Shown in pieces: positions 17 to 30,827 of a DNA stretch of 64,000 nt; position 1 is the stretch's first letter; every line of letters starts with the position of its first letter. Source of the DNA: a virus; the IMG/VR virus record IMGVR_UViG_3300013233_000151, positions 7,962 through 71,961 of that record; one strand, written 5' to 3'. The notes under the pieces are model-generated. The model was not told the origin of the DNA, did no database searches, and saw only the letters and a list, made by a program, of their open reading frames with translations. The position numbers were made by a program, and so were the translations under genes.

Positions 17-3000
17 ATGAAGAAGCAAACCACCGGCTCGGGCATGGCGGGCGAGATCGCCACCTACGTCATGCGCGGCAACCGCACGCCCTACGATCTC
101 CGCCAGCATTTCCGCCTCACGCTCCCGGCGGCTCAGAAGATCATGGATCAGTCCAACTACGCCTTCGGCCCGGGCGGAAAGGGCTACGCCTGGTACATGA
201 AGCAGGTCGGCAACGTGCTCAAGGGCGGAAACGTGTTCGAGGCCACGAACGCACAGAGCATCGCCGCAGGTGCGTTGGGCGCGATGAATCGAGGCCGCGA
301 CGCGAGCGTTCAATTCATCAACGAGGGTGTGCCGGAGACGCACCAGCGCAAGATCGCAGTCGCCACGCTCAAGATGAGCGCGATGGGCGCGAAGATCGCG
401 GGCGGCATGGATCACGCCGGAGCCGTAGCGGTGCTCAAGGACGCGGGCTGGTCCCCCGCGAAGATCGCTGCCCAGCTCAAGAAGGCCGGACATGACGCGG
501 CTGACATCAAGAAGTGGATGCACGAGTCGCTGGATGAGGACGAGAAGGCCAACGCTCGGAAGATGAAGGCGAAGGGTTACCGCTTCATCATCGAGTTCCC
601 GAACAACAAGCCCGCGCCGCTGTACGCGAAGACGCTCTCGATGGCGACCGAGATCATCAAGGACCACGGTGCGCCGAAGGGCGTCAAGGGTCAGCCGATC
701 GACAAATTCCTCAACGAAGACTCTGAGGACGACGAGCTGGACGAGGCGCTCGGAGCGAAGGACAAGAAGGTGATCGCGGCGTTCACGGACAAGAAGCCGA
801 TGGACGGTCCGAAGCTCTCCACGGATGGCGAGACGCTCGACTTCAACGGCATGGGCGGTCGCGGTGTTGCGTCGTGGTCGAACGGCAAGATCTACATGGG
901 CGACACCGGCAGCACGCAAGACGATGCGGTGCACCGCGCGATTCGCAAGACCGCGCCGCGTAACTGGATCGGTGAGTCCACCGACGAAGCGAGCCCGTCC
1001 GTGCTCGGCGACAAGCTCAAGGCGATGTTCGACGCGGAGTATTCGCTCAACCACGGCAAGGGCAAGGACGCGGCTGCGTCGGTCAAGAAGGCTCTCGAAG
1101 CGAAGGTCAAGAAGCTCGCTTCCGAGCTGGGGAAGGTAGGCGGCTACAAGTATCTCGTGAGCCCCGCGCTGAACAACGCGCGCAAGGGCACGAGCTGGTC
1201 GAAGTTCGCGCGCAACATGGTCACGTCGAACCTCGACATGGGCGAGTCGCTCGATGAAGCCGTCCAGGTCACGGCTGCGTACGCGCTGGCGAACATGAAG
1301 CGCGGCGATCGCGTCGAGCTTTCGACGCCGCAGTCGGGCAACCAGACGCGCAAAGGCAAGGCCGTGATGCGCGGACCCCACGGATGGGCGGTCGATCTTG
1401 GAGGCAAGCATGGCACGCCCGGCGTTGCCACCGAACGCAACCTCATCAAGTGGAAGGCTCACCCGGTTGTGAGCGAGGCGAGGGGAGCGGGTAAAGGTGA
1501 GTTGGCAGGTAGGCGCATCGGCGTCGGCACCGTCAAGAAGTCAGCGAGTGGTGCGAAGGATAGGGCCTCTGCTAAGCGCATCGTCGAGGGCGTGCTTGGA
1601 ATTCAAGACCGTGCACACGCACGACAGCTTGGGATCGACGAGAGCGTCTTGGGTCGTGCGAACGGTCTGCCGACTGCGCTGCGCAAGTATTCGCACGCGC
1701 TCCCCAAAGGTCTTGGTAAGCCGCAGAAGTACGAGACGCGAGACGGCGTGAAGGAGGGCTACTACCTCACACTCACCGACAACAAGCGCGGGCTATCCAA
1801 TCGTCCCGGTTCGTCGAGCGGCAGCCTCACCGCCGTCTTCACGGTCGAGAACCTGCTCAGTCAGTTCAAGAAGGCGGAGGGTGAGCACGGTCAGCACGGT
1901 CACACGACGTTGACTTTCAAGAAGGGCGAGGGCAAGGCTCCGAAGATTGTTGAAGCCCGTCTCTCGGGCGGCAGCGGAGGCAGTTCCAAGAAGGCGTCAC
2001 GCAAGGATGATCCCGAAGCCGCAGGTTCGAGTAGGTTCGCTGCTCAGGGCGTCGGAAAGAAGGCCAAGCGTGAGAGCGACCACGGCGAGCACCACAGCAA
2101 CTACGAGTCTGTGGAAGAGGCCAAGGGAGACCCGGTGCGGCTCAAGGTCATAAGCGCCGTTCGTGTTTCGTCCGTGGTTCCCGGAGCGACGGCGGGGGTC
2201 ACGCTTCAAGATCAGACGGTTCTTTTTCGATCGACCGATTACGACGGGCGTGGTGGTGTGACGGGTCCGTTTGTCCTCGTGGACTCGACGGACGCGATGT
2301 TCGCGGTGCTGAACTTCGGATGGAACGTCGGTTTTGAGGAAGAGCGCGGTCTCAACAAGAAGGCCCACGCTGCGATGCGTAGGAATGCGGCGCGGGCGTT
2401 CAAGCAGTTCTTGAAACGGACCAACGAATCCAACGACGACAACACCGACGACCTCTCCGCCAAGAAGGAGTCGGGTCTCAAGGCCAAGGCGAAGGAGATG
2501 GGAGCCATCAAGGTCTCGGGCAAGGGTCCTAGCGTGAACGCCACCTTCAAGGACAAGGCCACGGCCGAGAAGTTCTATCGGCACGCCAAGACGGTCGGCA
2601 AGGCGTCGATGCGCCGCAGTGGCGACACCGAGTTCACGATCAGCATCGACGAGTCCGAGGACTGCCCGGAGATCGTGGACATCGGCGATGGTCGCTACTA
2701 CATCGAAGGCGTCGGCATGTGTGAGTCGCTCGATGAGGCGCAGGGTCATCTGCTGCTCGATGAGGACGTGCTCGACGAGATGAAGAAGTCCAAAGGACAC
2801 GTCGCATTCCTGGGTGACTTCGAGTACGTGATCGTGAACGGCGGCGAGGGCATGGTGCTGGGACGCGCCCCGACCTCCAATGCCTTCGACCAGACGGGTA
2901 ACCGTCACGCGCGTTTCGAGGCCCCGGCGTGGCAGGCCGAGCAAGCGATGAAGCTCGCGTTCAGTGGCTTTCGGCAGAAGGTCGATCCGAAGGCGATGCA

Positions 3001-6000
3001 GAGGCTCAAGCGATTGCTCAAAGAAGACGTGGACGAAGGCGCGGAGACGCTGCGCGTCAAGATCCTCGACATCTTCGACAATGGTGAAGATTTTCATCCG
3101 CGCTACACCGTCAACATCGAGACCAACAACCGCGACATATACACGTTTGGGATGTTCGAGCCCGGCACCGAGCCCGACTCACAACAGGGGAACGCGGTGG
3201 TGTCGAACTTCACCAACTTCCTCAAGGGTGGAGCGCGTCGCGGCGAGCACGCGATGAAGGTGTCGATGAAGCGTCTCCCGGCTTCGCTGCGCGGTCAGCT
3301 CGAAACGCTCATCGCCGACCCGAGCCCTTGGTGGGGAGATCTGGAGTACGACGAAGATCTCGACGAGATGGGGCAGATTTACAGGATCGGAGCTGGGGGC
3401 CTCAAGCCCATCGACACCACGATCTTTCTCGCTCCCAACTCGTCCTATTACCTCGGTGCGTCCACCACCCCACATCACATTGTCGTGACGGCGGTGTCGG
3501 ATTCGCAGATTACATATTGTCAGTATCCGTACACGACATCGCAGCGAATCGAGACGGAGATCGGCAAAGATCTGATTGCGCAAGGCACGAGCCGTTACAT
3601 GAAGACGTACGCTGCCTATCTTGACCCCAAGCAGAAGGCGACGTGGGTGGCGAATCTCAAAGGCAAGAAGGGTCCTTTGAACGGCAAGCAGCCCGTCAAG
3701 GGCTTCCAGCGGGTGCTCGTTACCTGCGTCGCCAACGCGAAGACGCGCGATCTATACGGTCAGACGAAGAGCTATGGCGTCCTGACCGACTACTGGCAGA
3801 GTGGTAAGCCCGGTGCGAAGGGCGACAACGCCAGTAAGGAAACGAGCGTCATCAAGGTCGCGCGCAATATGGTCCCGGCCATGAAGTCGAGCGGTGACTT
3901 CGATATCGTGACGGTCGGTCGCAAAGTTGTGGAGTCGGACGAGGATTACTGCGATTGGATCGACGAGAACGGTATCGACGAGTTCACGAGCGCCGCCATC
4001 CCGGCCATCGGCACCATGCACCCGTGGGTCAGTCCCTACGGGAGCGAGATGTCGCTGATCGGTGGAGCCGATGACCTGGAGGACGACGAGGACGCAGACA
4101 ACGAGTTCGCGCTCGACGAGAACGGAAACTTCGAGCTAGTAGATGAGGCCAAGTCCTCCAAGTTCTCGGTCAAGTGCCTGGAGTGCGGCAAGAAGTTCAA
4201 GACCGCCTCGATGAGCCCGACCTGTCCGAAGTGCAAGGGCTCCGACATCGAGCCCGACTACGACGCGCCCCGTCGTCGGAAGCGCAACGAGGACGTGGAA
4301 GACGAACTCGACGAATCCGTCAAGCCAACCGTCGAGGGCTTTCATTTTATCCTCACGGGTGCGCTGACTCAGTACGACGTGCAGCAGATGGCGCGTGCGG
4401 CGAAGAAGAGAGGCGGCTATCACAACGCGAATGCGTTAGGTCTGTACTTTCAAGCGTTAGAGCGGGCCGAGAAGGATCCGAAGATGCGCGGTGTCAAGAA
4501 GACATCTTCGGATCACGAGGATTTGCGTAAGCTCATCGCGGTGCTCTCAGATTACTTCGATCCGCATTTCCCTCCGATCAAGAAGACGATCAAGCAGATC
4601 CAAGCTTTCATCGACTCCGGAAAGCTTCCCAAGTACCCGACGCCTCCCAAGAAGCGCAAGATCTCGGATAGCATCGAGATCCCAGAGGTCGATGAGGCGT
4701 GGCCGGTGCGTGGTACGGGCGGCGCGGGTGGCGGCAAGCCTAACCTCAAGGCAGAACGCAAGGGGCCTCGCGGGCAGGGAACCGACGATTTTGAATTCGC
4801 GGACGAGGATCTCGACGAAGGCTCGTCGCTCCACGACGCGCTCATCGCACTGTTCGTCAGCAATCGAGGACGCGCCTACACGGCGAGCACCATCGCCAAG
4901 CTCCAAACGGTCAGCCTCGCGGAAGCGATGCGGACGCTCACGGTGCTGGTCCGAGAGGGCACGCTCCGGTTCAAGCGCGGCGAGGGCTATTCGCTACGCG
5001 GCAACCCTAACGCACTCAGGGTCGCGGGAGCTTCGGAGCCCAAGGCACCGCTGTCCTCTCGGCTCTACAATCAGCGTACGAACAGCTCGCCCGCGTCCAT
5101 GCGCGAGGACGTGGATGAGGCTGTCGATCCGCTCAAGGCGTTCAAGGGACGCCCTCGTGACTGGACAGCAAAGCAGAACCGCGACGCTGTGGAGATGCTT
5201 TCTGGGTGGTCTCTCAAGAAGCTGCGTAAGCACCAAGACCTGAACAAACGACAGATCGTCACAGCACATCGACAGGGGAATACCGAGGCGCTGGAGAATC
5301 TGCAAGCGATGGAGAACGTTTACATCGGTGCGATTATGCGGCGGGAGGTCGGAGAGTCCGTGGACGAGGATAGTTCTTCGAGCGGCACGCTCTACACGGG
5401 AACCGGGCGCACCGGACCCGCTGGGCCGAAGCTCCCTCGGCATCTTACGGCGTCCGACTTCTCGAAGGGTGACGCGGGCGGTAACGGCCCCGTGAACCAC
5501 GAGCAGCTTAGAGGCCCGGCCCCGGATGCCAAGCGCAGCGCGATGGTGTTTGCCGAGGACGACGAAGACGACGTGGACGAAGGGTTGGGTCGGAAGGTCT
5601 TTTACACAGCGGACGGTATCGGCAAAGCGAAGTACATCGTCAACTTTCACGACGGGAAGAAGTCGCATGGCGACGGCAGCCCGTTCTACGACATCGCCAT
5701 CTTTGCGAGCAAAGCCAAGCGTGCGACGAAGGTGAAGGAGCTGCTGAAACAGGGATACAAAGAGGTCAGTTCGGCGGTTCACGAGACCACTACGTCTGGT
5801 GGCGTCGGAGGCTTCTCCAGTGAGCCGATCGGCAGCTACCCGGAGAACTGTGGTCGCACCGGAGGCATCCGTGATGACAGCAAGAAGAAGAAGGGGCCTC
5901 GCTCCGTCTTCGACAACGGAGCGATCGGTCGCGTGCTCGAACAGATGCGCGAGTCCATGCCGGGTAAGACGGACGAGGAGCTTATGGAGCTTCTCGATCT

Positions 6001-7528
6001 GGACGAAGGCGGCGAGCGTTTCAAGAAGCTGGAGAAGGAGATCGCTGCCAAGGGCGACGTGCGAGATCCCGGCGCGGTCGCGGCGGCGATCGGACGCAAG
6101 AAGTACGGCAAGAAGAAGTTTCAGAAGATGGCCGCTAAGGGCCGCGCGGAATCGACGGACGAGACGGGCACGTTGGAGATGACCGTCTACGCGAAGTCGA
6201 AGCGTGGACCTTGGGTCACGCTGGATCCCTACGGCGAAGAGGTTGAGTACCCGAACAAGCAAGAAGCGGTCGCGGCTGCGCGGGAGAAGGCTTCGGTCGA
6301 GAACTACGGGTTCGTGTACCGCGACGGCAAGGTGGCGAAAGAGGATGTGGGTGAGGCGATCGACGAAGCCGCGAAGAAGCTCAAGGTCGGCAAGGCTCCG
6401 AAGCTCGTGCAGGACACGCTGCGCAGCCTCATGCACAAGGTCACGTACGAGAAGGGCCGCTTCCTGACTGGCGACATCGTGCGCATGGACAAGGCCAAGA
6501 AGGAGGCGGTGATCCAGTGGGCTGTCGGCATGAACGATCCGCAGATGATGGAGCCGGGGACTATCGACGGTCACATCGAGCGACTCGCCAAGCGTCTCGT
6601 CGAGTCGGTCGCGGACAACAAGCGTCCCGTCAGCCTCAACCCTGTCGAGCGCGCACTCCTGAGCGCCATTCGGATCGAGCGAGGAAAGCACGGCATCGAG
6701 GAGTTGATCGCAACCGACCGATTCCTACAGTCAGTCCCGTATGCGGACGTGTTGGTGGCGGCTGATAATCTCTCCACCCTCGGGCTCGTGGGTGGGAACG
6801 GACGTGGGATTATGACCACGTTCGGAGAGGGCGAAGACGGCGTGGACGAAGTGGAGTTTCGTACCCTTCGCTATCCCTACAAGGTCGAGACGGCCGTGGG
6901 GGCGCATGGTCAGCTCAACGGCGTGCGTTTCTACGAGGACGACGCGCAGGCCAAGGCCGACATGCAGAAGCTCGTAAAGCGTGAAGGTCTCGGCAAGGTC
7001 ACGCTCGTCAAGCGCATGACCGCAGCGGAAGCCAAAGCCGCACACGTCCCGTACCCGAACGAGTCCGAGGATCCTGGACCCGGTGTCCAGGATGAGCTGG
7101 TTGAGGCGGTCTTGAAGACCGGCAACCCGAGCGTGCCGAGGATCGGCTACGAGCAGGGGCGCTACTGGTATTCGACCGGCGGTGCTAAGAACGGACCCGC
7201 TGTCCCACCCTCGAAGCGCAAGGACCGTAGCTTCGCGCGCGAGAAGTTTCGCCACATGCTTAGTAACGAAGCTGGCGGCGGAATGGGCCAAGCGGCTGCC
7301 TCGAAGCTGATCGACAAGCTCGATGCGATGATTCCTGAGGACGCGGAGGAGACTGGCCCGCGCGAGCCCCTTCAGTTCCCCGAGTCCGCACTCGAACGCT
7401 ACGTCTTGGCCGCTCAGGCGGCTGGGATTGACGAGGACGACCCTTGTTTTGTCTTCGAGGACGGCATCTTCACGGTGGAGGTGCCCGCTGAAATGGCTCC
7501 GCGTCTGCGTGAGCTGGTCGGGGTGTAG
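17..7528 (+). CDS. Giant modular protein (2503 aa), putative prohead-protease-processed internal head polyprotein; may extend 5' of the window
   Basis: Long ORF with GC-rich codon bias; about 30 acidic linkers (ESLDE, ESTDEA, EDVDEG, EDLDEM, ESVDED) separating unrelated basic modules, including a Zn ribbon and a wHTH; the frame is open back to position 2. Confidence 0.75.
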   Translation: MKKQTTGSGMAGEIATYVMRGNRTPYDLRQHFRLTLPAAQKIMDQSNYAFGPGGKGYAWYMKQVGNVLKGGNVFEATNAQSIAAGALGAMNRGRDASVQFINEGVPETHQRKIAVATLKMSAMGAKIAGGMDHAGAVAVLKDAGWSPAKIAAQLKKAGHDAADIKKWMHESLDEDEKANARKMKAKGYRFIIEFPNNKPAPLYAKTLSMATEIIKDHGAPKGVKGQPIDKFLNEDSEDDELDEALGAKDKKVIAAFTDKKPMDGPKLSTDGETLDFNGMGGRGVASWSNGKIYMGDTGSTQDDAVHRAIRKTAPRNWIGESTDEASPSVLGDKLKAMFDAEYSLNHGKGKDAAASVKKALEAKVKKLASELGKVGGYKYLVSPALNNARKGTSWSKFARNMVTSNLDMGESLDEAVQVTAAYALANMKRGDRVELSTPQSGNQTRKGKAVMRGPHGWAVDLGGKHGTPGVATERNLIKWKAHPVVSEARGAGKGELAGRRIGVGTVKKSASGAKDRASAKRIVEGVLGIQDRAHARQLGIDESVLGRANGLPTALRKYSHALPKGLGKPQKYETRDGVKEGYYLTLTDNKRGLSNRPGSSSGSLTAVFTVENLLSQFKKAEGEHGQHGHTTLTFKKGEGKAPKIVEARLSGGSGGSSKKASRKDDPEAAGSSRFAAQGVGKKAKRESDHGEHHSNYESVEEAKGDPVRLKVISAVRVSSVVPGATAGVTLQDQTVLFRSTDYDGRGGVTGPFVLVDSTDAMFAVLNFGWNVGFEEERGLNKKAHAAMRRNAARAFKQFLKRTNESNDDNTDDLSAKKESGLKAKAKEMGAIKVSGKGPSVNATFKDKATAEKFYRHAKTVGKASMRRSGDTEFTISIDESEDCPEIVDIGDGRYYIEGVGMCESLDEAQGHLLLDEDVLDEMKKSKGHVAFLGDFEYVIVNGGEGMVLGRAPTSNAFDQTGNRHARFEAPAWQAEQAMKLAFSGFRQKVDPKAMQRLKRLLKEDVDEGAETLRVKILDIFDNGEDFHPRYTVNIETNNRDIYTFGMFEPGTEPDSQQGNAVVSNFTNFLKGGARRGEHAMKVSMKRLPASLRGQLETLIADPSPWWGDLEYDEDLDEMGQIYRIGAGGLKPIDTTIFLAPNSSYYLGASTTPHHIVVTAVSDSQITYCQYPYTTSQRIETEIGKDLIAQGTSRYMKTYAAYLDPKQKATWVANLKGKKGPLNGKQPVKGFQRVLVTCVANAKTRDLYGQTKSYGVLTDYWQSGKPGAKGDNASKETSVIKVARNMVPAMKSSGDFDIVTVGRKVVESDEDYCDWIDENGIDEFTSAAIPAIGTMHPWVSPYGSEMSLIGGADDLEDDEDADNEFALDENGNFELVDEAKSSKFSVKCLECGKKFKTASMSPTCPKCKGSDIEPDYDAPRRRKRNEDVEDELDESVKPTVEGFHFILTGALTQYDVQQMARAAKKRGGYHNANALGLYFQALERAEKDPKMRGVKKTSSDHEDLRKLIAVLSDYFDPHFPPIKKTIKQIQAFIDSGKLPKYPTPPKKRKISDSIEIPEVDEAWPVRGTGGAGGGKPNLKAERKGPRGQGTDDFEFADEDLDEGSSLHDALIALFVSNRGRAYTASTIAKLQTVSLAEAMRTLTVLVREGTLRFKRGEGYSLRGNPNALRVAGASEPKAPLSSRLYNQRTNSSPASMREDVDEAVDPLKAFKGRPRDWTAKQNRDAVEMLSGWSLKKLRKHQDLNKRQIVTAHRQGNTEALENLQAMENVYIGAIMRREVGESVDEDSSSSGTLYTGTGRTGPAGPKLPRHLTASDFSKGDAGGNGPVNHEQLRGPAPDAKRSAMVFAEDDEDDVDEGLGRKVFYTADGIGKAKYIVNFHDGKKSHGDGSPFYDIAIFASKAKRATKVKELLKQGYKEVSSAVHETTTSGGVGGFSSEPIGSYPENCGRTGGIRDDSKKKKGPRSVFDNGAIGRVLEQMRESMPGKTDEELMELLDLDEGGERFKKLEKEIAAKGDVRDPGAVAAAIGRKKYGKKKFQKMAAKGRAESTDETGTLEMTVYAKSKRGPWVTLDPYGEEVEYPNKQEAVAAAREKASVENYGFVYRDGKVAKEDVGEAIDEAAKKLKVGKAPKLVQDTLRSLMHKVTYEKGRFLTGDIVRMDKAKKEAVIQWAVGMNDPQMMEPGTIDGHIERLAKRLVESVADNKRPVSLNPVERALLSAIRIERGKHGIEELIATDRFLQSVPYADVLVAADNLSTLGLVGGNGRGIMTTFGEGEDGVDEVEFRTLRYPYKVETAVGAHGQLNGVRFYEDDAQAKADMQKLVKREGLGKVTLVKRMTAAEAKAAHVPYPNESEDPGPGVQDELVEAVLKTGNPSVPRIGYEQGRYWYSTGGAKNGPAVPPSKRKDRSFAREKFRHMLSNEAGGGMGQAAASKLIDKLDAMIPEDAEETGPREPLQFPESALERYVLAAQAAGIDEDDPCFVFEDGIFTVEVPAEMAPRLRELVGV
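7071..7093. repeat. CTGGAC-N5-GTCCAG palindrome copy 1 (ATCCTGGAC CCGGT GTCCAGGAT), inside a polyprotein linker
   Basis: Perfect 9-bp inverted repeat; same core at 17648, 34725, 58338, 63654. Confidence 0.85.
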
Positions 7529-7555
7529 ACAGACACCCTCACATTCTTCTACCAT
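7525..7555 (+). promoter_or_regulatory. Putative promoter G-TAGACA N18 TACCAT
   Basis: Matches a motif recurring upstream of 8 structural transcription units. Confidence 0.6.
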
Positions 7556-7601
7556 CACGACCCTGGACAGCACGTCCTAGACATACTCCTGGAGCCAAGC
7601 C

Positions 7602-9314
7602 ATGCCGATCGAACTGAAACCCAAGTCCTCTGTGCGCGAGGCCGCCCCTGAAGAGACTCAAGGGCTCATGCTGTTCAACGAGGACGGTGAGCTGACTCTC
7701 GCGGGAGAGACCATCGCGGACTTTCTGTCCACCGCCGACTTCTCGGCCATCACCGAGTCGGAAGCAGCCTTGCCATTCCTCTCCAACCCCGCCGCTTGCG
7801 CCGACGATCCCTACGCGATCGACGAAGCCAAGAAGAAGAAGTCCAAGAAGAAGTCCAAGAAGGACGACATGGACATGGCCTACGAGGACAGTGAGGAGGA
7901 GGAAGAGGGTTTCGACGAAGCCAAGAAGAAGAAAAAGAAGAAGGCCGGGAAGGACTCGGACGGCGACTACGACGAGAGCCCTCCGGGCGAGATGGGTGAG
8001 GGCGACGCCGCCGACGATGAGGAGATCGCGGAGGTCGCGCTGCCCGGCGTGGTCGCGGCACGTCTCGTCGATGCGACGGACCTGACCGAGATGTTCGGCT
8101 ACTATCTCGACCAACTGTCCTGGGTCGATGAGCCGAGCCTGCAAGAGCAGGCCACGCTGGCCGTGTTCGCGGACTACCGTGACGAAGATGGCGGCATCGC
8201 TGAGGACCGGCGTGAGGAAGTCGCTGCGCTTCTGACCTCTGTTCTCTCCGAGGGTGTCGTGTACGACGCCGCCGAGGAGATCTCCGAGAGGATCCTGACC
8301 AAGGGTCAGCGTCGCAAGGCGACGAGGATCCGCAACAAGCCCAAGTCGGGCAAGCGTCGTGCGGAACTCAGGCTCCGCCGTCGCGTCGAGGGTCGCGGCG
8401 CGAAGAAGCAGAAGATCGCGCGGCAGCACAAGATGCGTAACCGAAGGAAGGTAGCGCGCATCGCGCAGCTCGCGCGCGAGAGCGAAGAGGGCACGCTGGT
8501 CTTCGGTCTCGGTGAGGGCATCAACGGAGCGAACTTCAAGATCGGTCTCGTGGAGGATCCGAACCTGGAGTTCACATCCGAGCAGCTCATCGAGTTCGAT
8601 GCGTTGGGCGGCAACATCTTCGAGTGCCCGGACTGCTACCACACCGCGCCCTACTTCGCATTCATCGACGAGATGAAGAAGAAGTCCAAGAAGAAGAAGT
8701 CCAAGAAGGACGACATGGACATGGCCGACGAAGCCAAGAAGAAGAAAAAGAAGAAGGCCGGGAAGGACTCGGACGGCGACTACGACGAGAGCCCTTCGGG
8801 TGAGATGGGTGAGGGCGTCGAAGAGATGACGGCTGGCGGACCGCCCAAGGTCGGTATGATCGTCAAGTACGACGGCCCTCGCACGGTCAAGCGTCACGAG
8901 GGCGACGACGGCATCATCACGAAGATCTCGGGCAAGCGTATATCGGTGAAGTGGGATCGTGGCACGACCGTCCACACCGTCGATGATCTCTACCTGACAG
9001 GCGAGTACGACGAGTCGATCGGTGAGGGCGCGTGCCCGGAGTGCGGCTGCGTCATCGAGTCCATGCTCGACGAGAAGGGCAAGGTCCCGCCCGCCTTCCT
9101 CAAGCACATGAAGGGCAAGAAAAAGGACGACGACGAAGGCATGAAGAAGGACATGAAGAAGAAGAAGGACGAATCGGTCGCTCCGTCGCACGTCCCCGGT
9201 GCCTTCGCGGTCGCGGCCGGTCGTCCCAACCTTTCCGAAGGACACAGCCTCGCGGCGGCGACGCTCGGCGTCCTGGGCGGGCGGAAGTCGGTCCTGACCG
9301 AAGACGAGGACTGA
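7602..9314 (+). CDS. Prohead core/scaffold-like protein (T4 gp67/gp68-like character)
   Basis: Alternating very acidic and poly-Lys/Arg blocks, many x-x-E sites (IDEA, MGEG, LSEG, LDEK), internal duplication, GGAG RBS. Confidence 0.6.
   Translation: MPIELKPKSSVREAAPEETQGLMLFNEDGELTLAGETIADFLSTADFSAITESEAALPFLSNPAACADDPYAIDEAKKKKSKKKSKKDDMDMAYEDSEEEEEGFDEAKKKKKKKAGKDSDGDYDESPPGEMGEGDAADDEEIAEVALPGVVAARLVDATDLTEMFGYYLDQLSWVDEPSLQEQATLAVFADYRDEDGGIAEDRREEVAALLTSVLSEGVVYDAAEEISERILTKGQRRKATRIRNKPKSGKRRAELRLRRRVEGRGAKKQKIARQHKMRNRRKVARIAQLARESEEGTLVFGLGEGINGANFKIGLVEDPNLEFTSEQLIEFDALGGNIFECPDCYHTAPYFAFIDEMKKKSKKKKSKKDDMDMADEAKKKKKKKAGKDSDGDYDESPSGEMGEGVEEMTAGGPPKVGMIVKYDGPRTVKRHEGDDGIITKISGKRISVKWDRGTTVHTVDDLYLTGEYDESIGEGACPECGCVIESMLDEKGKVPPAFLKHMKGKKKDDDEGMKKDMKKKKDESVAPSHVPGAFAVAAGRPNLSEGHSLAAATLGVLGGRKSVLTEDED
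7913..8817 (+). repeat. 92-bp direct repeat (7913-8004 and 8726-8817, 2 mismatches) plus an adjacent duplicated KKKSKK..KKDDMDMA block
   Basis: Direct comparison; encodes DEAKKKKKKKAGKDSDGDYDESP.GEMGEG twice. Confidence 0.9.
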
Positions 9315-9407: not shown

Positions 9408-9836
9408 ATGACCATGAGCGGACCCCAACACGTACTGCCCCCGGCGAGCACGACCAAGGTGGACCTGCGATCGCAGGCCGCCGGGTTCTTCGCGCAACGT
9501 CGTCGAGGCGCGAACGTCCATGAGGCGGCTCCGCCCCCGAAGGCCCGCAAGGCCCCACAGGGCCTCTACGACGACCCTGAGCCGGTCATCATCGCTGAGG
9601 CTTCCCAGAAGGCCCCTGAGCCCACCCAGCTCCCCGAGGCGTCAGAGCAGCGATACACGCTCGCGCAGCTCGTGGAGAAGATTCAGCAGCGTAGGGGGGC
9701 GCGTCAGGCGATCGTGGCGTCGGGAGACCCGGACGGCCCGGACGACACAGGTTGGGATCCAGGAGACCTCAAGATGCCCAAGCGGGGCGCGACGCTCGCG
9801 GCTGGGGTCCTCGCTTACCAGCGGAGGCAGCGGTGA
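9408..9836 (+). CDS. Small putative prohead core/internal protein
   Basis: ORF after TATACT at 9399; VHEA, IAEA, LPEA sites; C-terminal GATLAAGVL resembles GHSLAAATL of the previous protein; start uncertain. Confidence 0.55.
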   Translation: MTMSGPQHVLPPASTTKVDLRSQAAGFFAQRRRGANVHEAAPPPKARKAPQGLYDDPEPVIIAEASQKAPEPTQLPEASEQRYTLAQLVEKIQQRRGARQAIVASGDPDGPDDTGWDPGDLKMPKRGATLAAGVLAYQRRQR

Positions 9837-21719: not shown

Positions 21720-23244
21720 TCTCCGCCTTCTCTGTGAAGGCTGGATCGAAGAAGGCTGCGAGGGCTCCAGTGTCTTTATTCCTGAGCGCGCGTACGTCGT
21801 GCAGGGCGACAAGGTGTGGTTCGCGTACGGCGCGACCGACGCGATCGACGAGTCGGAGAACAAGAAGATCGTCGAGAGCTACGAAGATCTGGATCTGGAA
21901 GAGCGTCAGGTCAACGGCACGACGGTCAAGATGCCGAAGGGCGGCCGGTGGGTCGTGGAAGGTCCGGGTCAACGCTCGGACGTGAAGAACGCGAACCAGC
22001 GTACCTACAGCCGCAAGATCTGGGAGAAACTCGTTGCTGACAAGAAGAGCTACGTGCAGCAGGCGATCACTGAGCGTCAGATGGTCGGCCACCTGGAGCA
22101 CCCGAAGGACGGTCGCACCGACCTCAACAACGCTGCGATTCTGACCACGAAAGCCGAGCTGCGCGAAGACGGCGTGGTGTGGAACCAGTTTGAGCTGCTC
22201 GACACTCCGGGCGGCATGATCCTCCAAGAGCTGACCCGCAAGGGCGTCAAGTGGGGCGTCAGCTCGCGCGGAACCGGCACGGTCGGCGACGACGGCCAAG
22301 TGTCCGAGGACGACTACACGCTCAAGACGTGGGACGCGGTTGCTTCCCCCAGCACGCCGGGCGCGCACCCGAAGCTCGTGCTTGGATACGGGAAGACGCG
22401 CAACGAGAACATCGACGAGGACGCACCTGTCCTGTCGGAAGAGGGAAGCCAAGCCCTCGAACACCTGACCGAACTGGTCGAGACCGAAGCTGACGGCATC
22501 TCGGAGTCCGTCGTGCTTCGCCAAGACATCCTCGCTGACCTCGCTGACCTCGACGAGATGGATCTGCAAGCCATTCTCTTCCAGGACGCAGGCTGGTCGA
22601 AGATCCACGCCGCCGTCGAGCGCGCGCGTGAACTGTCACAAGGCGGAGACATCGACGCGGCGATCGACGAAGCCCTCGCAAGCGGGGACGACGAGAACAG
22701 TGAGAGTGGTAACCTCTTGGCAACCGTTGAAGACCTGCAAGAGCAGGTGAGCGATTCTGTCAGCGAGACCATCGAGCTGCGGGATCAACTGGAAGCTGTC
22801 GAGTCCGAGCGCGATGCGCAGACGGAACGACTGGCTGCGGTGGAAGGGGAGCTGGCTCAACTACGAGTCGAGCGTGACCTTGCACGCGAGCTTCTGGCGG
22901 AGACCCCGGGACGTAACACCGGGGATGTGGCCGCTGCGGCGGACGAGGCAATCAGCGAGGAACCTGAGCTGGAACGCTTCCGCGATCTCATGGAGAGCGT
23001 GGAGTCGGTCGAGCAGGTCCGCACCCTTGCAGAACGTCTCGCCCCGGTCGTCGCCAAACCCGCTCTCGTCGAAGAGACGGAGGAGCCGGTGAAGCCGACC
23101 AAGCCAAAGCGAACCGCGCGGACCGCTCTACCCGTCGGTGTATCACTGGTCGAGACTCGCGTGAAGCGGTCGAAGCCTGTGCGTGCGATCGCGGAGTCCT
23201 CCGGGGCTCGGATCGTCGCCAAGATGCCCGGCTTCAAGAAGTAA
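21643..23244 (+). CDS. T4 gp21-like prohead protease fused to an acidic coiled-coil scaffold domain
   Basis: KNANQRTY, GHLEHP, LLDTPGG, GVSSRGTG, WDAVASPSTPGA motifs; acidic heptad C-terminal half; directly precedes the capsid gene. Confidence 0.9.
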   Translation: MPKKGSSSMKTKTKKTGPTGSADESDLRLLCEGWIEEGCEGSSVFIPERAYVVQGDKVWFAYGATDAIDESENKKIVESYEDLDLEERQVNGTTVKMPKGGRWVVEGPGQRSDVKNANQRTYSRKIWEKLVADKKSYVQQAITERQMVGHLEHPKDGRTDLNNAAILTTKAELREDGVVWNQFELLDTPGGMILQELTRKGVKWGVSSRGTGTVGDDGQVSEDDYTLKTWDAVASPSTPGAHPKLVLGYGKTRNENIDEDAPVLSEEGSQALEHLTELVETEADGISESVVLRQDILADLADLDEMDLQAILFQDAGWSKIHAAVERARELSQGGDIDAAIDEALASGDDENSESGNLLATVEDLQEQVSDSVSETIELRDQLEAVESERDAQTERLAAVEGELAQLRVERDLARELLAETPGRNTGDVAAAADEAISEEPELERFRDLMESVESVEQVRTLAERLAPVVAKPALVEETEEPVKPTKPKRTARTALPVGVSLVETRVKRSKPVRAIAESSGARIVAKMPGFKK

Positions 23245-23287
23245 CCGTGTCGCCCCTCGGGGCGCAACCACAAGGACAAACACTACT

Positions 23288-24790
23288 ATGCTTCTCTCGA
23301 ATCAAGGGATCTACGAAGGGATCCTGGAGGCGGGCGCAAGGCTCGCCGAGACGCCCGAGGCCGAAGGCGGCTGGGCCGAATACTTCATGGCGACCGACGA
23401 GGCCGACATGAGCATCGAGGATCCGATCCTCCGTGCGCAGACCTGCATCCTCCTGGAGAACGCCAAGCGTGAGATGGCCCGTGGCCTCCCGCGCGCGGTC
23501 GTCGAAGGCCGCGTGAGCCTCGACGAGACCACTCGGTCCGCGCTCGTCGGCGGGTTCTCGGACTACCTGTTCCCGATCATTCGGGCCGGGTTCCCGACCA
23601 ACCCCATCAACGAGCTGGTCTCCGTCCAGCCCACGACCCGCCGCACTGCGACGATCGTGTACTGGAACTGGATCGTCGGCACCAGCAAGGGTCAGTTCAC
23701 CCAAGGTCAAAAGCTCTTCGACGCCAACACAGGTAAGCAGACCCGTGACATCGACTTCTCGAACGAAGTCGTCAACGGCGAAGCGATCCCGGCCCTCGGC
23801 TCGGCGGCGGGAACCAACGCTGGCACGCTGGCGTTCCACGACGGCGGGGGCATCCGTCCCGGCACCGTGGCGCTGACGCTACAGATCACGACCGGCACGG
23901 CCAACGTGACGTTCGTGGACAACGGCAACGGTGCTTTCATCGCGGGCGGCGGCGTGACCATCACGGCCAGCTCGATCGACTACCAGACGGGTGCGTGGAC
24001 CATCACGATCAACCTGGAGACCTTCACGACGGCGGCCACCAACTCGGCCACCTACCGTTGGGACTCCGAGGGTTCGACGATGATCCCGCAGGTGGACATC
24101 CAGATCGTGACGAACACCGTTCAGACCGAACGGCGCGCGCTCAAGATCAACTACTCGAAGGAAGCGATGCAGGACGTGATGTCCGAATTCGGCGTCTCCT
24201 TGGAGCCCAACCTCGTCGCCGGTGCTGCCGAGCAGATGAACTACGAGATCGCTCGTCAGGTCATCGCGGAAGTCTGGCAGGTGAGCCCCGTCGCCTCGAC
24301 GTTCGACCTCAAGGTGCCGTCCGGTATCTCCCAACAGGAGCACTTCCGCGACATCATCTTCAACATCAACAGCGCGTCCAACTCCATCTGGGCTCGGACG
24401 CAGAAGGGCTACGGCAACTGGCTGGTCGTGGACGAGGGGTTCGCCAACCTCATCGAGTCCTTGCCCGCCTCGCTGTTCGTCGCGGCTCCGATGCCCCCGA
24501 GCGTGCACGGCCTGCACTTCATCGGGACGCTCCTGAACCGCTACCGGGTCTACAAGGACCTGCACCTGGACAAAGAGCCGGGTGCGCAGACCGTGGGCAA
24601 CATGCTCATGGGATTCAAGGGTGCCAACTTTTTTGAGGCTGGGTTCGTGTGGGCTCCGTATCAGCTCATGTACACGACCTCCCCCCTGGAGACGGCGGAC
24701 TTCCTCACGCAGCGCGGCCTAGCATCTCGCTACGCGACCAAGATGGTCAACCCGGACATGTACGCGAGGATTGACCTCATCACTACCTGA
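23288..24790 (+). CDS. Major capsid protein, T4 gp23-like
   Basis: LLEN, ELVSVQP, RALKINYSKEAMQD, NYEIAR, AGFVWAPY, GLASRYA motifs; predicted maturation site SLDE|TT; AAGGA RBS. Confidence 0.93.
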   Translation: MLLSNQGIYEGILEAGARLAETPEAEGGWAEYFMATDEADMSIEDPILRAQTCILLENAKREMARGLPRAVVEGRVSLDETTRSALVGGFSDYLFPIIRAGFPTNPINELVSVQPTTRRTATIVYWNWIVGTSKGQFTQGQKLFDANTGKQTRDIDFSNEVVNGEAIPALGSAAGTNAGTLAFHDGGGIRPGTVALTLQITTGTANVTFVDNGNGAFIAGGGVTITASSIDYQTGAWTITINLETFTTAATNSATYRWDSEGSTMIPQVDIQIVTNTVQTERRALKINYSKEAMQDVMSEFGVSLEPNLVAGAAEQMNYEIARQVIAEVWQVSPVASTFDLKVPSGISQQEHFRDIIFNINSASNSIWARTQKGYGNWLVVDEGFANLIESLPASLFVAAPMPPSVHGLHFIGTLLNRYRVYKDLHLDKEPGAQTVGNMLMGFKGANFFEAGFVWAPYQLMYTTSPLETADFLTQRGLASRYATKMVNPDMYARIDLITT

Positions 24791-26720: not shown

Positions 26721-27500
26721 ATGCCGAATACTGCTCTGACCGCCAAGAACATCAAGAAGCGGATCGAGATTCGTCTCGGTTCGTCGGGCGTGTTTATCGA
26801 GCTGGAAGACGACGACATCGACGAGGCGATCCGGGAGGCGATCGAGCTGTACAACCAGATCCGACCGGCCAAGCGCCGCGCGGGTGTGCAGGTCACGACG
26901 CAGCAGAACCGCTACGTGCTCGTGGACAGCGCGGGCGCGACGAACTTCCCGGGAATCGCGGGCGTCGTGGATGTGCAGTTCATCACGCGCCGCACGCAGC
27001 CCGCGCAGGTCGATCCGTTCGACCCGTTTGACACCGCGCTCGCGGGCGTGACGTTAGGCAGCGGCTCGGGTGAGACATACGGCGAGATCGCGCAACGCCT
27101 CATGTACACTGAGGACGCGGCGCGCATCGTGGACTCGGAGCCGGATTGGGATGCACTTTGGGAAGGCCCGGAGCTGATTCTCTACCTGAGCATCCCGCGC
27201 TCGCACATCTTGGTCGGCATGGAGTACAGCGTCTACTACGCGCCCGACAACAACAGCGACAACGGGATGCAACTCATCCCGAGCGGCGACGTGGAGATAC
27301 TGCTGCGCTACATGACGGCGGTGTCGAAGGTGATCCTCGGCCGCATCCGCGTGAAGCACGGCGGCACCGTGAACCCCGAAGGCGGAGTGGACGAGATCGA
27401 CGGCGCTGCACTCCTCCAGGAAGGCAGCGAGGACATCGGCTCAATCCGCGAAGAGATGGAGCGTCGTCGCGCGCCCTTGTCGCCCACGTCGCCCGAGTGA
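26721..27500 (+). CDS. Neck protein, T4 gp13-like
   Basis: RLG...IELEDDDIDEAI, KVILGRIRVK, IDGAALLQEG motifs. Confidence 0.85.
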   Translation: MPNTALTAKNIKKRIEIRLGSSGVFIELEDDDIDEAIREAIELYNQIRPAKRRAGVQVTTQQNRYVLVDSAGATNFPGIAGVVDVQFITRRTQPAQVDPFDPFDTALAGVTLGSGSGETYGEIAQRLMYTEDAARIVDSEPDWDALWEGPELILYLSIPRSHILVGMEYSVYYAPDNNSDNGMQLIPSGDVEILLRYMTAVSKVILGRIRVKHGGTVNPEGGVDEIDGAALLQEGSEDIGSIREEMERRRAPLSPTSPE

Positions 27501-27506
27501 TGGACC

Positions 27507-28094
27507 ATGCCGAAGCGCAAGCCCAAAGCCCCCAAGATTCCCGACGCGAAACTGCTGTTCAAGCGCGTCAAGGAGGTCATCACCGAGACTGTGGTGGATG
27601 AGCTGGAGCTGTGGGCTGAGGAGATCCGCGATGAGTTCGTGGGGCTGATCGAAAACCAAGCGTTCGCCTCCTTCCAGATCATCCTGTACCCGGAGAGCAA
27701 CACGAACCTCTCCCCGCAGTGGCTCGCGCGCAAGGAGGCGGCGGACGCGGACGAGCGTACGATGATCGCCACCGGGCACTACACGCGCTCGATCAAGGTC
27801 TTCAAGAAGTACGACCGCAAGCAGAAGAAGTGGGTCATTCGCGTAGGCTTCCACCCACGCATTCAAGCGCGCGACCTCAAGAACCGCATCGTGTCAATCC
27901 TGCTCGACGACGTGGCGCTCGTGCAGGAGTTGGGCAGCATCAAGGCGCATGTTCCGGCACGCCCGCACTGGCGGCCCCACCGTGACACTGTGAAGAAGGC
28001 AGCACCGGCGAAGCGCAAGGAGTTGGTCAGGACGACGTTGCGGGTAATCGAGCATGACCGCAGGCTCAAGAAGCTCGCCGTGGGGGTCCGATAG
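27507..28094 (+). CDS. Virion morphogenesis/neck-associated protein (HK97 gp10-like)
   Basis: LSPQWLARK, MIATGHYTRSI, QELGS..VPARPHWRP. Confidence 0.65.
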   Translation: MPKRKPKAPKIPDAKLLFKRVKEVITETVVDELELWAEEIRDEFVGLIENQAFASFQIILYPESNTNLSPQWLARKEAADADERTMIATGHYTRSIKVFKKYDRKQKKWVIRVGFHPRIQARDLKNRIVSILLDDVALVQELGSIKAHVPARPHWRPHRDTVKKAAPAKRKELVRTTLRVIEHDRRLKKLAVGVR

Positions 28095-28727: not shown

Positions 28728-29167
28728 TGCAGACCGTCGCACGCATATTTCAGGGCAAGACCCTCAAGATCCATTCGATCGACCGAGTGGAGATCCTGCT
28801 CGAACTCGACTTCGATTTCCTCGCCCGCAAGATCTTCTCGTTGGAGTTGGAGTTCGACCCCGAGGATCTGGAAGAGGACGACTATGGCCGCGCGCAACAC
28901 TGCCTCGTCGTATTGCTCGGCGGCAAGCGTGTCGTGGTCGAGCCCGAGATCTCGGTGCGTGAGCATTGGGGCCGCCGCACCGAGATCCCCTCGCGCGTGT
29001 ACCTGACCGAGCGCGTGCACGGTCAGCCGATCGGCTACACGGAAGGTGTGCCGGGACGTGCTGAGCCCGTGCTTGAAGTCGCTCCCTTCTACAACAGCCT
29101 GTTCCCCATGTTCGACGTGCAGGCCGTGAAGTCAGTGCTCAACGGAAGAGGTGGTCACCGTGGCTGA
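28724..29167 (+). CDS. Degenerate thermonuclease-like OB-fold protein (tentative)
   Basis: KIHSIDRVEILLELDFDFLARKIFSL resembles the RVVDGDT..IDLGF..RL pattern without catalytic residues. Confidence 0.4.
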   Translation: MMQTVARIFQGKTLKIHSIDRVEILLELDFDFLARKIFSLELEFDPEDLEEDDYGRAQHCLVVLLGGKRVVVEPEISVREHWGRRTEIPSRVYLTERVHGQPIGYTEGVPGRAEPVLEVAPFYNSLFPMFDVQAVKSVLNGRGGHRG

Positions 29168-30827
29168 TCGACTTGGACATTCGTACGAGGATACGATCCG
29201 ACAGCACGATGCGGCCTTCTTCTCGTTCTGGGATGCGCTGCATGTGGACTACGGAGCGCTCGGGCTCGGGATCGAAGACAACGTGAACTCTCCGTTTTCG
29301 GCGATCGACCGCAATGATTTTCCCATCCTCAAGGTGTTCGCAACGCCTCAGCGCGCTGTCGCGCGCGTGGTGGATGAGCTGGTGATGAGCGGATGGCTCG
29401 CAGGGGCGGATGCTACCGCACAGGCGGCGAACGCTGAGGTACTCCGCACAAAGGCGGGGGAAGATTTTGGTGTCCTGCCCCTGCCTCTTATCACGGTCAC
29501 GCGAGAGGAGCCGGGACAGAACCCGCAAGACTCGGGCGTGCCGAAGGTGTTCCGAAAGCAGTGTTTCGACGAGACCAATCAGGCGTATCAGACGCAACGC
29601 TGGCCGGGCGCGTGGGAGATTAGCTACCGCGTGACCGTGTGGGGCATCAAGCGCGCCACGATGGCGTTCATCCGTGAGTGGGTGATGAGTCAGGTCGGCG
29701 TAGTGGGCGGCACCGAAGGTGAGCTGTTTCTTCCAGTCCGGCACGCAGACCCGTGGGGCATCATCAACCAAGCGATGAGCCTCGATACGATCACGGACCA
29801 GAGCCAGCTTGAAGGCAGCGATGACGCGCGGATGCTCCGTCAGGAGTATTCGTTCACGCTCAAGATGTGGCATTTCAAGAGGCCGGATCCTCCGGATGGC
29901 GTGGACCCCGGACAGCCCGGATACAGCGCGGGTCAGATCCAAACAGTTGATGGATTCAACTTGGAGGAGGTGGTGTTCATGCCGGGCGCTGCGCTTGGCA
30001 TCGAGTTGGATCCCGGCGACTTCGCCACCGACCCGACGACGATCGCGCCGAGTCCTCTCGGGCTCAATATGTTCTCGTTCTTCTTGAGCGACGCTCAGAT
30101 CAAGACGCAATGGCCCAAGACGGGCAACGCGACGGTGCGTCGGGGAAGTAGGTCGCCGCTCGGTATTGCGCCGCATCCGACGCTGCGGATCGTCGTGAAG
30201 GACGTGACGGATGAGGTGCTGATCTCGAATCGCACCATCACGCTCGACGCGGATAGCCTCGCCGTAATCACGACGGCATTCGACTATAAGTCCACAGGCT
30301 CGGTCGAGATGCTACTCGCGCAGAAGGCGGCGGGAGTCGGAAATTCGTTTACCAATACCTACCGGCAGGCGATGCCGCTCGCTGTCAACTGGACACACGG
30401 ACAATTCTTTGCGCTCACGGATCAGTCGGTCTTCTCGATGAGCGTGCTCGGCACCGGCACCGCGCAGCTCGAACAGGTGGACGTGTCGCAGATCAACATG
30501 CGCCACGTTCGCTCGCCCGCCGTCAAGACGCTGCCCGATAGCGCGACGCCCGGGGGCGGTGTGACGGTCTACCAGTGGAATAGTCTCATGGCCGCGCGTA
30601 CGCACCTCGCGGTCATTCAGTTTGGCACCCCGACGGGCTCTGGCACCATCGACGTGAACGGCGAGATCTACACCGTGAATCCTGCCGACCAGAGCGCGGG
30701 CTTCGTTGGCATTCTCGCTACGCCCTTCGGGGGCGGCTCCGTCACCGTCACGGTGGACGATGCTCTGAACCCCTTGCTCGTGTACGTGCAGGAGTACAAG
30801 GGCTTTTGGGACGGCACGGAGGTCTAG
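29160..30827 (+). CDS. Tail completion/terminator protein (gp15-like) with C-terminal beta extension
   Basis: VFATPQRA, LPLPLITVTR, ISYRVTVW, RQEYSFTL motifs; position before the sheath. Confidence 0.7.
   Translation: MADRLGHSYEDTIRQHDAAFFSFWDALHVDYGALGLGIEDNVNSPFSAIDRNDFPILKVFATPQRAVARVVDELVMSGWLAGADATAQAANAEVLRTKAGEDFGVLPLPLITVTREEPGQNPQDSGVPKVFRKQCFDETNQAYQTQRWPGAWEISYRVTVWGIKRATMAFIREWVMSQVGVVGGTEGELFLPVRHADPWGIINQAMSLDTITDQSQLEGSDDARMLRQEYSFTLKMWHFKRPDPPDGVDPGQPGYSAGQIQTVDGFNLEEVVFMPGAALGIELDPGDFATDPTTIAPSPLGLNMFSFFLSDAQIKTQWPKTGNATVRRGSRSPLGIAPHPTLRIVVKDVTDEVLISNRTITLDADSLAVITTAFDYKSTGSVEMLLAQKAAGVGNSFTNTYRQAMPLAVNWTHGQFFALTDQSVFSMSVLGTGTAQLEQVDVSQINMRHVRSPAVKTLPDSATPGGGVTVYQWNSLMAARTHLAVIQFGTPTGSGTIDVNGEIYTVNPADQSAGFVGILATPFGGGSVTVTVDDALNPLLVYVQEYKGFWDGTEV

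Follow-up and report, generated by a model that had tools for sequence, protein, structure and literature searches.

A 2,503-residue phage protein made of small modules between prohead-protease-type sites, a probable cargo polyprotein of a T4-type head

The DNA analyzed here (the window, 64,000 nucleotides of one strand) consists of bases 7962 to 71961 of the 71,961-base virus contig IMGVR_UViG_3300013233_000151 (designated G000). Its open reading frame (ORF) at positions 17 to 7528 encodes a 2,503-residue protein, P0001, for which the evidence supports an organization as a chain of independent small proteins with prohead-protease-type sites between them. The chain comprises some 23 to 28 independently folding and mutually unrelated domains of 5 to 22 kDa, mostly basic, each followed by a short acidic E-S-[LIV]-D-E linker. 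In its sequence, this linker matches the maturation site predicted in the phage's own major capsid protein (MCP), and it does so in phages that carry an S77-family protease. P0001 is probably processed by the prohead protease, and we favor the view that the ORF product is a polyprotein of cargo for a T4-type head. The ORF had been described as such a polyprotein in an earlier reading of this DNA (the original prediction); the present analysis adds that there are four genes of this kind, that the linker grammar is found in other lineages, and that two of the modules have folds without a match. In what follows, P0002 to P0009 are eight giant relatives of P0001, and G001 to G005 are related contigs.

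Linker sites and the segments between them

The tripeptide [LIVMT]DE is found 27 times in P0001; in 2000 shuffled versions of this protein, it occurred 3.1 ± 1.7 times (maximum, 10). When reduced tripeptides were scanned without bias, hDE (h being L, I, V, or M) came out as the most enriched (24 occurrences versus 2.4 expected; z, 13.8). The longer form E[SDAG][LIVMT]DE is present 11 times in P0001, 7 times in the giant ORF immediately upstream (among 14 [LIVMT]DE sites there), and 4 times in the ORF at 9752 to 11479, compared to a single occurrence in all other plus-strand ORFs of at least 100 residues on the 72-kb contig. From 31 kb on, where most ORFs belong to the tail region, the contig contains 6 [LIVMT]DE sites altogether. 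On this contig, the linker motif is confined to the array genes, as the four linker-bearing genes are called here, and the head genes for the protease and the MCP. An alignment of the array-gene sites of three genomes gives the consensus E (P5), S/D/A (P4), L/I/V (P3), D (P2), and E (P1), followed by A, G, D, or S. The codons used at the sites vary synonymously (TCG/TCC/AGC, CTC/CTG/TTG, GAC/GAT, and GAG/GAA), which indicates selection on the peptide and not on the DNA.

Together with VEE-701 and VHE-1923, the 27 [LIVMT]DE sites make up 29 candidate cleavage sites, which divide P0001 into 30 segments. The original prediction of about 30 modules thus holds as a count, although only 23 of the segments are at least 40 residues long; the ORF itself, checked in the ORF list and the translation, and all ten of the linkers quoted in that prediction, checked in the translation and the site tables, lie where they had been placed. 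Some of the sites are closely spaced and include doublets, at which cutting would free acidic peptides of 5 to 10 residues. As had been claimed, the modules are mutually unrelated: all-against-all BLASTP comparisons found no pair of similar segments at an E value of ≤1e-3, either within P0001 or within the upstream ORF. The claim that the modules are basic applies to most of them, as 18 of the 23 segments of at least 40 residues have a positive net charge once the last six linker residues are removed, while 4 are negative and 1 is neutral. Likewise, the notion that several modules prefer A/T-ending codons was correct in that the G+C content at third codon positions (GC3) differs between modules, from 0.68 to 0.90 around 0.79, but the differences, though real, are small (absolute z of ≤2.5), and nothing was concluded from them.

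The regions of P0001 that are shared with other proteins tend to begin and end at the linkers. BLASTP yielded 66 high-scoring segment pairs (HSPs) between P0001 and related proteins; no more than 10 residues separate 55% of their starts and 58% of their ends from a site, versus 22% for random positions. Position 1923, the V-H-E site, is one of the recurrent HSP breakpoints that do not fall at [LIVMT][DE]E sites. Several segments are matched from the first residue to the last, namely, residues 1118 to 1317 in G001 (200/200, 74%) and residues 922 to 1007 and 2230 to 2278 in G002, with adjacent segments having no counterpart. Modules have also changed places: one that belongs to the upstream gene in G000 is part of the second array gene in G002, and residues 410 to 478 are found elsewhere in G002. 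A HMMER search with residues 1118 to 2317 against 1.84 billion representatives returned 1317 proteins at an E value of ≤0.001, many of them small, stand-alone, and similar to one segment only. The coverage by 139 HSPs (from hits of at most 700 residues) changes in steps at 1117/1317, 1433/1560, 1855/1923, and 1997/2049, and stand-alone relatives of 54 to 210 residues are found for five modules (Table 1).

Structure prediction, for which per-module alignments served to define the module families, yielded confident predicted folds for two families, neither of which matches a known fold at an E value of ≤0.001. AlphaFold2 models based on family alignments had a predicted local distance difference test (pLDDT) score of 90.5 and a predicted template modeling (pTM) score of 0.82 for residues 1118 to 1317, with a mean pLDDT of 49 for the last 10 residues, which form the acidic linker, and a pLDDT of 85.2 for residues 1856 to 1922. 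Foldseek searches with the first model produced no match at this cut-off in PDB or BFVD (best E values, 0.087 and 0.04), and those with the second produced none in PDB (best E value, 0.43). For the N-terminal module, there was no usable match in the ESM Atlas. P0001 has no above-threshold match in Pfam, PHROGs, PADLOC, or the PDB sequences. In Pfam, seven of the eight giant relatives are without an above-cut-off match and P0004 has only a HypA zinc ribbon just above the cut-off; ten stand-alone relatives gave only subthreshold zinc ribbon matches in Pfam and PHROGs.

The independence of the segments is supported by the linker-bounded homology, the stand-alone relatives, the two confident folds, the reshuffling of modules, and the restriction of the motif to array and head genes, and on the same grounds the proposal that a single gene encodes a library of independent small proteins is upheld. 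Three kinds of results that the original prediction had named as contrary to it were looked for, and none turned up.

The correspondence between linker and capsid protein involves a site that is itself well conserved. The pattern [LI]-[DN]-E↓[TVA]T[RV][SA] (arrows mark predicted cuts) is present in all 19 of the aligned capsid proteins, which come from this phage and 18 relatives. T4 gp21 prefers L or I at P3. In addition, the module at residues 1924 to 1987 starts with TTTSGGVGGF (residues 1924 to 1933, window positions 5786 to 5815), a near copy of the TTRSALVGGF of the MCP (residues 116 to 125, window positions 23528 to 23557). This echo of the capsid protein, already pointed out in the original prediction, is retained by the relatives: E↓TTTSG[GT]VGGF is conserved in P0001 and in the polyproteins of four of them, and a fifth (P0012) has the looser E↓TVSGMVGGF. 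The capsid-like start of this module could offer the protease a strong site, or it could act as a handle that attaches at the place where the N-terminal arm of the capsid protein does.

The four-gene array and its relatives

P0001 is encoded by the second of four consecutive linker-bearing genes on the same strand, with products of 1987, 2503, 570, and 575 residues (about 17 kb and 5,600 residues in all), which are located 10 to 24 kb upstream from the genes for the protease and the capsid protein. The same four-gene layout is found in G002 (2325, 2620, 484, and 501 residues) and, for the portion that lies within its contig, in G001. The 1987-residue protein contains an AAA_33/zeta-toxin-type kinase domain at residues 232 to 375 (E value, 1.6e-12), a stretch of ParB-like appearance with a match to phrog_2859, and a match to phrog_9437. 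The product of the third gene is highly charged, with lysine-rich runs after its IDE sites and zinc-ribbon-like CxxC pairs. No peptidase family was matched in any of the four genes.

A search of IMG/VR identified 21 related contigs, including G002, which is complete (156 kb; MCP 84% identical), and G003, which is 98% complete (143 kb; MCP 64% identical); the MCP of G004 is 59% identical. The giant relatives P0002 to P0009 (1824 to 2572 residues) have 10 to 23 sites each, compared to about 3 to 4 expected, and match P0001 only in patches that cover 5 to 35% of it. Most relatives retain the terminal position of the N-terminal module (residues 1 to 174) and of the last 30 to 55 residues. The module at residues 1602 to 1701 is kept over its whole length, end to end, in G001 and G002, and the zinc ribbon module at residues 1378 to 1433 has a stand-alone 54-residue relative (P0137) and two copies in the G002 protein.

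In the more distant relatives, the linkers are present and the modules are replaced. G003 encodes two linker-bearing ORFs, one of 2082 residues with 18 sites (versus 3.2 expected) and one of 1018 residues with 6 sites (versus 0.9 expected). Their linkers have the form E-S/G/D-[LIV]-D-E↓A/G/V, and BLAST found no match between these polyproteins and any polyprotein from G000 to G002 (E value of ≤1e-4). In G004, similar material is found in large genes, four or five in number and 657 to >1395 residues long, on the strand of its capsid gene; neither G003 nor G004 has a match to P0001. In a viral lineage of low GC content, polyproteins of 400 to 800 residues have E-S-V-N-E↓A/G/S linkers (P0011, P0117, P0149, P0152, P0154, and P0157; L050 to L088); one such polyprotein has relatives at 39 viral loci, and two of the contigs concerned encode gp23-type MCPs. 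The cultured marine myophage Methylophilales phage Melnitz (L091; GenBank accession number MZ577097.1) shares one module and has two- and three-module versions of such proteins. No polyprotein was found in the stretch of G005 that was examined. As a sequence pattern, the linker grammar is thus common to other phage lineages.

Stand-alone homologs of the modules often have leaders that end in a related motif. In the family of residues 1118 to 1317, 24 stand-alone members have at least 10 residues before the domain, and in 19 of these an [LIV]-x-E ends within the last seven, the background frequency of [LIV]-x-E in 7-mers being 0.044. Two such genes were inspected in their DNA context; each has a stop codon just upstream of the Met codon, with leaders of 9 and 17 residues, on viral contigs of 34% and 68% GC, both of which encode a PF03420 protein. 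Three different modules, in P0016, P0020, and P0093, are preceded by a nearly identical leader, ...L-[RK]-[QK]-I-I-[KR]-E-E-I-x-x-L-x-E↓, which occurs twice within the 170-residue P0093, as if each module had a targeting leader of its own. These leaders resemble the capsid-targeting propeptides of T4 and, by that analogy, lend indirect support to the packaging and processing of the modules.

Head genes and neighboring loci

The window contains the late genes of a T4-type head, including an S77/gp21-type prohead protease, a gp23-type MCP, and a head-tail adaptor-like gene (Table 1). The gene at 21643 had been predicted to encode the prohead protease, and the Pfam and PHROGs matches agree. An alignment with gp21 of KVP40 shows His153, Ser207/208, and Asp224/231 to be invariant; which of these Ser and Asp residues are catalytic we presume from the triad known in this family. 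IDE sites of the protease's own, at residues 68 to 70 and 257 to 259, lie on either side of the protease domain. Its C-terminal extension of about 270 residues, which is missing from KVP40 gp21, abounds in charged heptad-like sequence and, by eye, has the character of a coiled coil; it may be a fused scaffold. No scaffold gene separate from the protease was recognized. The MCP ORF starts with a GTG codon at 23183 and overlaps the end of the protease gene by 62 nucleotides.

TABLE 1 Features of the polyprotein array, of the head genes, and of a cultured relative (window positions unless another record is named)
Feature	Position	Strand	Basis or description
Upstream giant polyprotein, 1987 residues	Contig 2004-7967 (G000:C1, L041:2004-7967), outside the window	+	Ends 10 nucleotides before the start of P0001
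Polyprotein P0001, gene 2 of the array, 2503 residues	17-7528	+	ATG start; ORF list and translation
Predicted cuts, first part (within 530-7435)	After 538, 745, 988, 1258, 1642, 2119, 2653, 2737, 2764, 2779, 3037, 3367, 3967, 3982, 4120	+
Predicted cuts, second part	After 4147, 4315, 4696, 4819, 5119, 5368, 5581, 5785, 5977, 6007, 6163, 6367, 6850, 7435	+
N-terminal module, residues 1-174	17-538	+	BLASTP: N-terminal in P0002, P0005, P0006, and the G002 protein; partial in P0007; internal in P0008 and P0009
Module 1118-1317, globular domain	3368-3967	+	About 50 homologs span exactly this block; stand-alone relatives
Module 1378-1433, zinc ribbon	4148-4315	+	Weak HypA, DUF7129, and Zn_ribbon_8 matches, all below cut-off
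Module 1434-1560	4316-4696	+	13 homologs over the block; stand-alone P0101, P0134, and P0120 (118-139 residues)
Module 1602-1701, possible winged helix	4820-5119	+	Subthreshold Rrf2 match at residues 1608-1669 (E value, 0.0023; 18.5 bits, cut-off 30)
Module 1856-1923, ends in VHE↓	5582-5785	+	58 homologs span exactly this block; stand-alone proteins of 64-100 residues
Module 1924-1987, starts with TTTSGGVGGF	5786-5977	+	Resembles the N terminus of the mature capsid protein
Module 1998-2049	6008-6163	+	Stand-alone P0105, P0128, P0138, and P0155 (65-74 residues); six viral loci match this block alone
C-terminal 30 residues past the last site	7436-7525	+	Kept at the extreme C terminus of P0002, P0003, P0005, P0006, P0007, and the G001 and G002 proteins
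Array gene 3, 570 residues	7602-9314	+	4 [LIVMT]DE sites; conserved in G001 and G002
Array gene 4, 575 residues	9752-11479	+	6 [LIVMT]DE sites, 4 of them ES[IL]DE; partly conserved in G001 and G002
Prohead protease (S77/gp21 type), 533 residues	21643-23244	+	PF03420, 1e-14 (55 bits, cut-off 27); phrog_207, 2.4e-34
MCP (gp23 type)	23183-24790	+	PF07068, 2.8e-46; Gp23 domain begins at residue 124
Predicted MCP maturation site LDE↓, residues 113-115	23519-23527	+	Reads VSLDE↓TTRSALVGGF; nine residues ahead of the Pfam Gp23 domain
Melnitz hypothetical protein, 462 residues	MZ577097.1, 8008-9396		IDE↓M and MDE↓A, after acidic runs
Melnitz hypothetical protein, 251 residues	MZ577097.1, 9397-10152		VEE↓A and LDE↓G, after acidic runs

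Several further observations concern the surroundings of these genes. Three head-proximal ORFs (26721 to 27500, 27507 to 28094, and 29151 to 30827) contain a single [LIV]DE each, 30 to 76 residues from the N terminus (IDE at 33 to 35, VDE at 30 to 32, and VDE at 74 to 76), which is what one would expect if N-terminal propeptides are lost there too. Array gene 3 contains two pairs of direct repeats, one of 95 nucleotides that are 97% identical (7913 to 8007 and 8726 to 8820) and one of 73 nucleotides that are 82% identical (7818 to 7890 and 8664 to 8736). Each repeat begins at an IDE/DE site and continues into a lysine-rich run, which points to a recent duplication of a linker together with a basic segment. 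Between the array and the head genes are two genes for fusions of a ParB N-terminal domain with a DNA methyltransferase and one for a MazG-like pyrophosphatase (11927 to 13177, 15921 to 17165, and 17596 to 18315); in G002, a methyltransferase is also found upstream of the array. An HNH endonuclease gene lies farther upstream in G000 (L041:943-1635). The large ORFs 3' of the head genes are taken for tail genes, going by their size and position alone. Between 34000 and 50000, the GC content of the window is 0.55 to 0.58 versus about 0.62, and the GC3 of the large ORFs is 0.64 to 0.69 versus about 0.8 in the head genes. The region, whose large ORFs are taken for tail or fiber genes, may have a different history.

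Processing, packaging, and alternative explanations

By analogy with known phage heads, the array would work as follows. The chain would enter the prohead, the conserved N- or C-terminal modules being the likeliest handles; the S77 prohead protease would cut it after the linker Glu, as at the LDE↓TT site of the capsid protein; and the folded, mostly basic modules would remain with the DNA and pass into the host upon infection, like the internal proteins of T4 and the ejection proteins of giant phages. The rapid turnover of modules under a fixed linker grammar suggests that they act in conflict with the host. A role in counterdefense is a conjecture that draws on this turnover, on the analogy with IPI of T4, and on the ParB-like and zeta-kinase domains encoded upstream.

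Several observations weigh against this scheme. The clade is uncultured: the best cultured capsid protein found in the MCP search is about 30% identical, and blastn and tblastn searches of the INPHARED phage collection with the protease-MCP DNA, P0001, and two single modules were all negative. No module of P0001 has an assigned function, which is why counterdefense stays a conjecture. Tripeptides of the [LIV]-x-E type are also numerous inside the modules, about 50 to 70 in each giant relative, so the motif by itself does not predict cutting, and the residues typical of the linkers at P4 and P5 (E-S) are not found at the MCP site. Whether phages with [LIV]-N-E at the MCP site also use N in their linkers was examined, and no clear covariation at P2 emerged: G004 mixes D and N, and the two MCPs found in the low-GC lineage read LLDE↓A and LVKE↓A. 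The array is not strictly inside the head module, since it lies 10 to 24 kb upstream of the protease gene, from which methyltransferase and MazG genes separate it. No capsid-targeting sequence was recognized in P0001 itself, for which residues 1 to 174 are only a candidate, and some of the stand-alone relatives are on very short contigs and could be miscalled pieces.

The alternatives differ in whether, where, and to what end the chain would be cut. It is unlikely, in our estimate, that P0001 is a giant polyvalent protein that stays uncleaved, a string of beads, packaged or not, with the acidic stretches as flexible spacers. The virion RNA polymerase of phage N4 reportedly works as one such beads-on-a-string molecule. 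The upstream gene has zeta-kinase and ParB-like domains typical of polyvalent proteins, the unprocessed transfer of some of these proteins is noted in the available text of PMC5512222, and no embedded peptidase was found in P0001 or the upstream polyprotein. A generic spacer, however, would not hold a five-residue grammar over lineages of 34 to 68% GC, nor would it equal the maturation site of the MCP or recur at the end of N-terminal leaders on stand-alone homologs. Moreover, the array is freely split and fused among the relatives (four or five genes in G004, modules moved between genes in G002), which argues that covalent linkage is unnecessary for function. We regard as quite improbable a disposable core or filler that aids in building or sizing the prohead and is afterwards cut up, with the fragments leaving the capsid, in the manner of the long SPN3US propeptides or of T4 gp22, gp67, and gp68. 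The many close sites, including doublets, and the lack of a recognized separate scaffold gene would fit such a role, and multisite cutting of core proteins and propeptides is described in the available parts of PMC5694885 and PMC10052503. Yet an essential scaffold should be conserved, and here the content is wholly replaced between phages whose capsid proteins are 64% identical; compact folds of up to 200 residues are predicted for the modules, the upstream gene encodes enzyme domains, and the 270-residue extension of the protease is a more ordinary scaffold candidate.

That the linkers are cut outside the head, by another Glu-specific protease or by the S77 enzyme in the cytoplasm, so that the polyprotein would be a device for equimolar synthesis, also has a low probability. 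The array adjoins the methyltransferase, ParB-fusion, and MazG genes and not directly the capsid gene, and no targeting signal was identified, which would suit this explanation. As opposed to that, the prohead protease is the only Glu-specific protease recognized on the contig, the short leaders of the stand-alone homologs, of a cleavable type, resemble capsid-targeting propeptides, and in the systems covered by the available text of PMC7411985 the S77 proteases are reported to be active inside the prohead. Finally, module boundaries are recombination breakpoints among the relatives, and one could see in the linker a joint for recombination at the DNA level, a conserved 15-nucleotide sequence whose translation is incidental. 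This is extremely improbable given that the same peptide grammar is kept at very different GC contents and with N in place of D, and it was rejected because of the synonymous codon variation at the sites.

A cargo polyprotein processed in the head, the explanation that we prefer, has partial parallels in several known systems. With the internal proteins IPI to IPIII and Alt of T4, it would share a head built from a gp23 MCP and an S77 protease, cutting after Glu with a hydrophobic P3 residue, and small, diverse, mostly basic cargo, and the short leaders on the stand-alone homologs of residues 1118 to 1317 have their likeness there, too. The difference is that about two dozen units are joined here in one frame with a site after each, whereas T4 has separate genes with one N-terminal propeptide each; no sequence similarity between P0001 and the T4 internal proteins was found. 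IPI is known as an anti-restriction factor, and large proteins have been packaged by means of the T4 targeting sequence. The propeptides of the T4 internal proteins are 10 to 20 residues long (PMC7411985), and internal proteins from T-even phages are described as diverse defense proteins that have only the targeting sequence in common (PMC3012670). Prohead proteases of T4, phiKZ, 201phi2-1, and SPN3US all cut C-terminally to Glu at a short motif, according to PMC5694885. The ejection or inner-body proteins of SPN3US, phiKZ, and 201phi2-1 are cut after Glu by a protease of the same family, at A-x-E in SPN3US and at several sites in the propeptide (PMC5694885 and PMC10052503, in the parts available). 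However, what those proteins lose is one N-terminal propeptide of 20 to 130 residues, with the multiple cuts inside it, whereas here folded domains would be released, and the P3 preference is for L/I/V and not for A as in SPN3US.

The polyvalent proteins described by Iyer et al. in 2017 (PMC5512222) are likewise very large mosaics of many unrelated domains, encoded near virion genes and predicted to accompany the DNA; two of the domain types listed there, ParB-like and zeta kinase, also occur in the upstream array gene. P0001, too, has many unrelated domains in one chain (the 23 segments of at least 40 residues) and is encoded on the same strand as the protease and the MCP, upstream of both. 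In contrast to this array, the polyvalent proteins have 2 to 15 domains, mostly recognizable enzymes, and their release is proposed to rely on embedded peptidases such as MPTase (PMC5512222); here, no embedded peptidase was matched, almost no domain is recognizable, and the linker grammar is regular. The conflict domains that are hallmarks of polyvalent proteins (ParB, methylase, ART, MuF, zeta kinase, and others) have no above-cut-off Pfam match in P0001. The available text of PMC5512222 mentions no repeated prohead-protease sites, and the words "prohead protease" occur in its main text only in the reference list. The T4 core proteins gp22, gp67, and gp68 are similar to P0001 in having many gp21-type sites (multisite cutting by gp21 is described in PMC5694885), but they are conserved and are degraded to peptides that leave the head, unlike the variable, folded modules seen here; the conservation among related phages that marks a prohead scaffold or core protein was not observed for P0001. 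As with the polyproteins of RNA viruses, an analogy also drawn for polyvalent proteins in PMC5512222, one product has repeated short sites for a viral protease. There is no homology; in this double-stranded DNA (dsDNA) phage, the protease is a separate enzyme that serves capsid assembly, and its products would be cargo of the virion and not replication proteins. In our judgment, the array combines the logic of T4 internal proteins with the layout of polyvalent proteins. In the available full texts of the literature, supplements excluded, no tailed-phage polyprotein cut at repeated prohead-protease sites was found to be described.

A broader generalization is possible rather than probable. Tailed phages with T4-type heads may share a plug-in cargo system in which any small domain followed by an E-S-[LIV]-[D/N]-E linker, or placed behind a leader that ends in [LIV]-x-E, is copackaged and then freed by the prohead protease. 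In that case, the arrays would amount to rapidly evolving collections of dozens of injected-effector families that so far lie outside Pfam, PHROGs, and PDB, a dsDNA-phage equivalent of the RNA-virus polyprotein for the first minutes of infection. If the cargo reading is true, there would be a rule by which cargo can be read from sequence, namely, a domain with ES-[LIV]-[DN]-E or an [LIV]-x-E leader in a phage with an S77 protease. Metagenomes could then be mined for injected proteins, a class that is hard to find and includes IPI of T4, and the linker would provide a ready design rule by which T4-type capsids could be loaded with foreign proteins. Many new domain families would join the candidate early-acting effectors, and tailed dsDNA phages would be seen to use a polyprotein strategy that relies on an assembly protease acting in trans.

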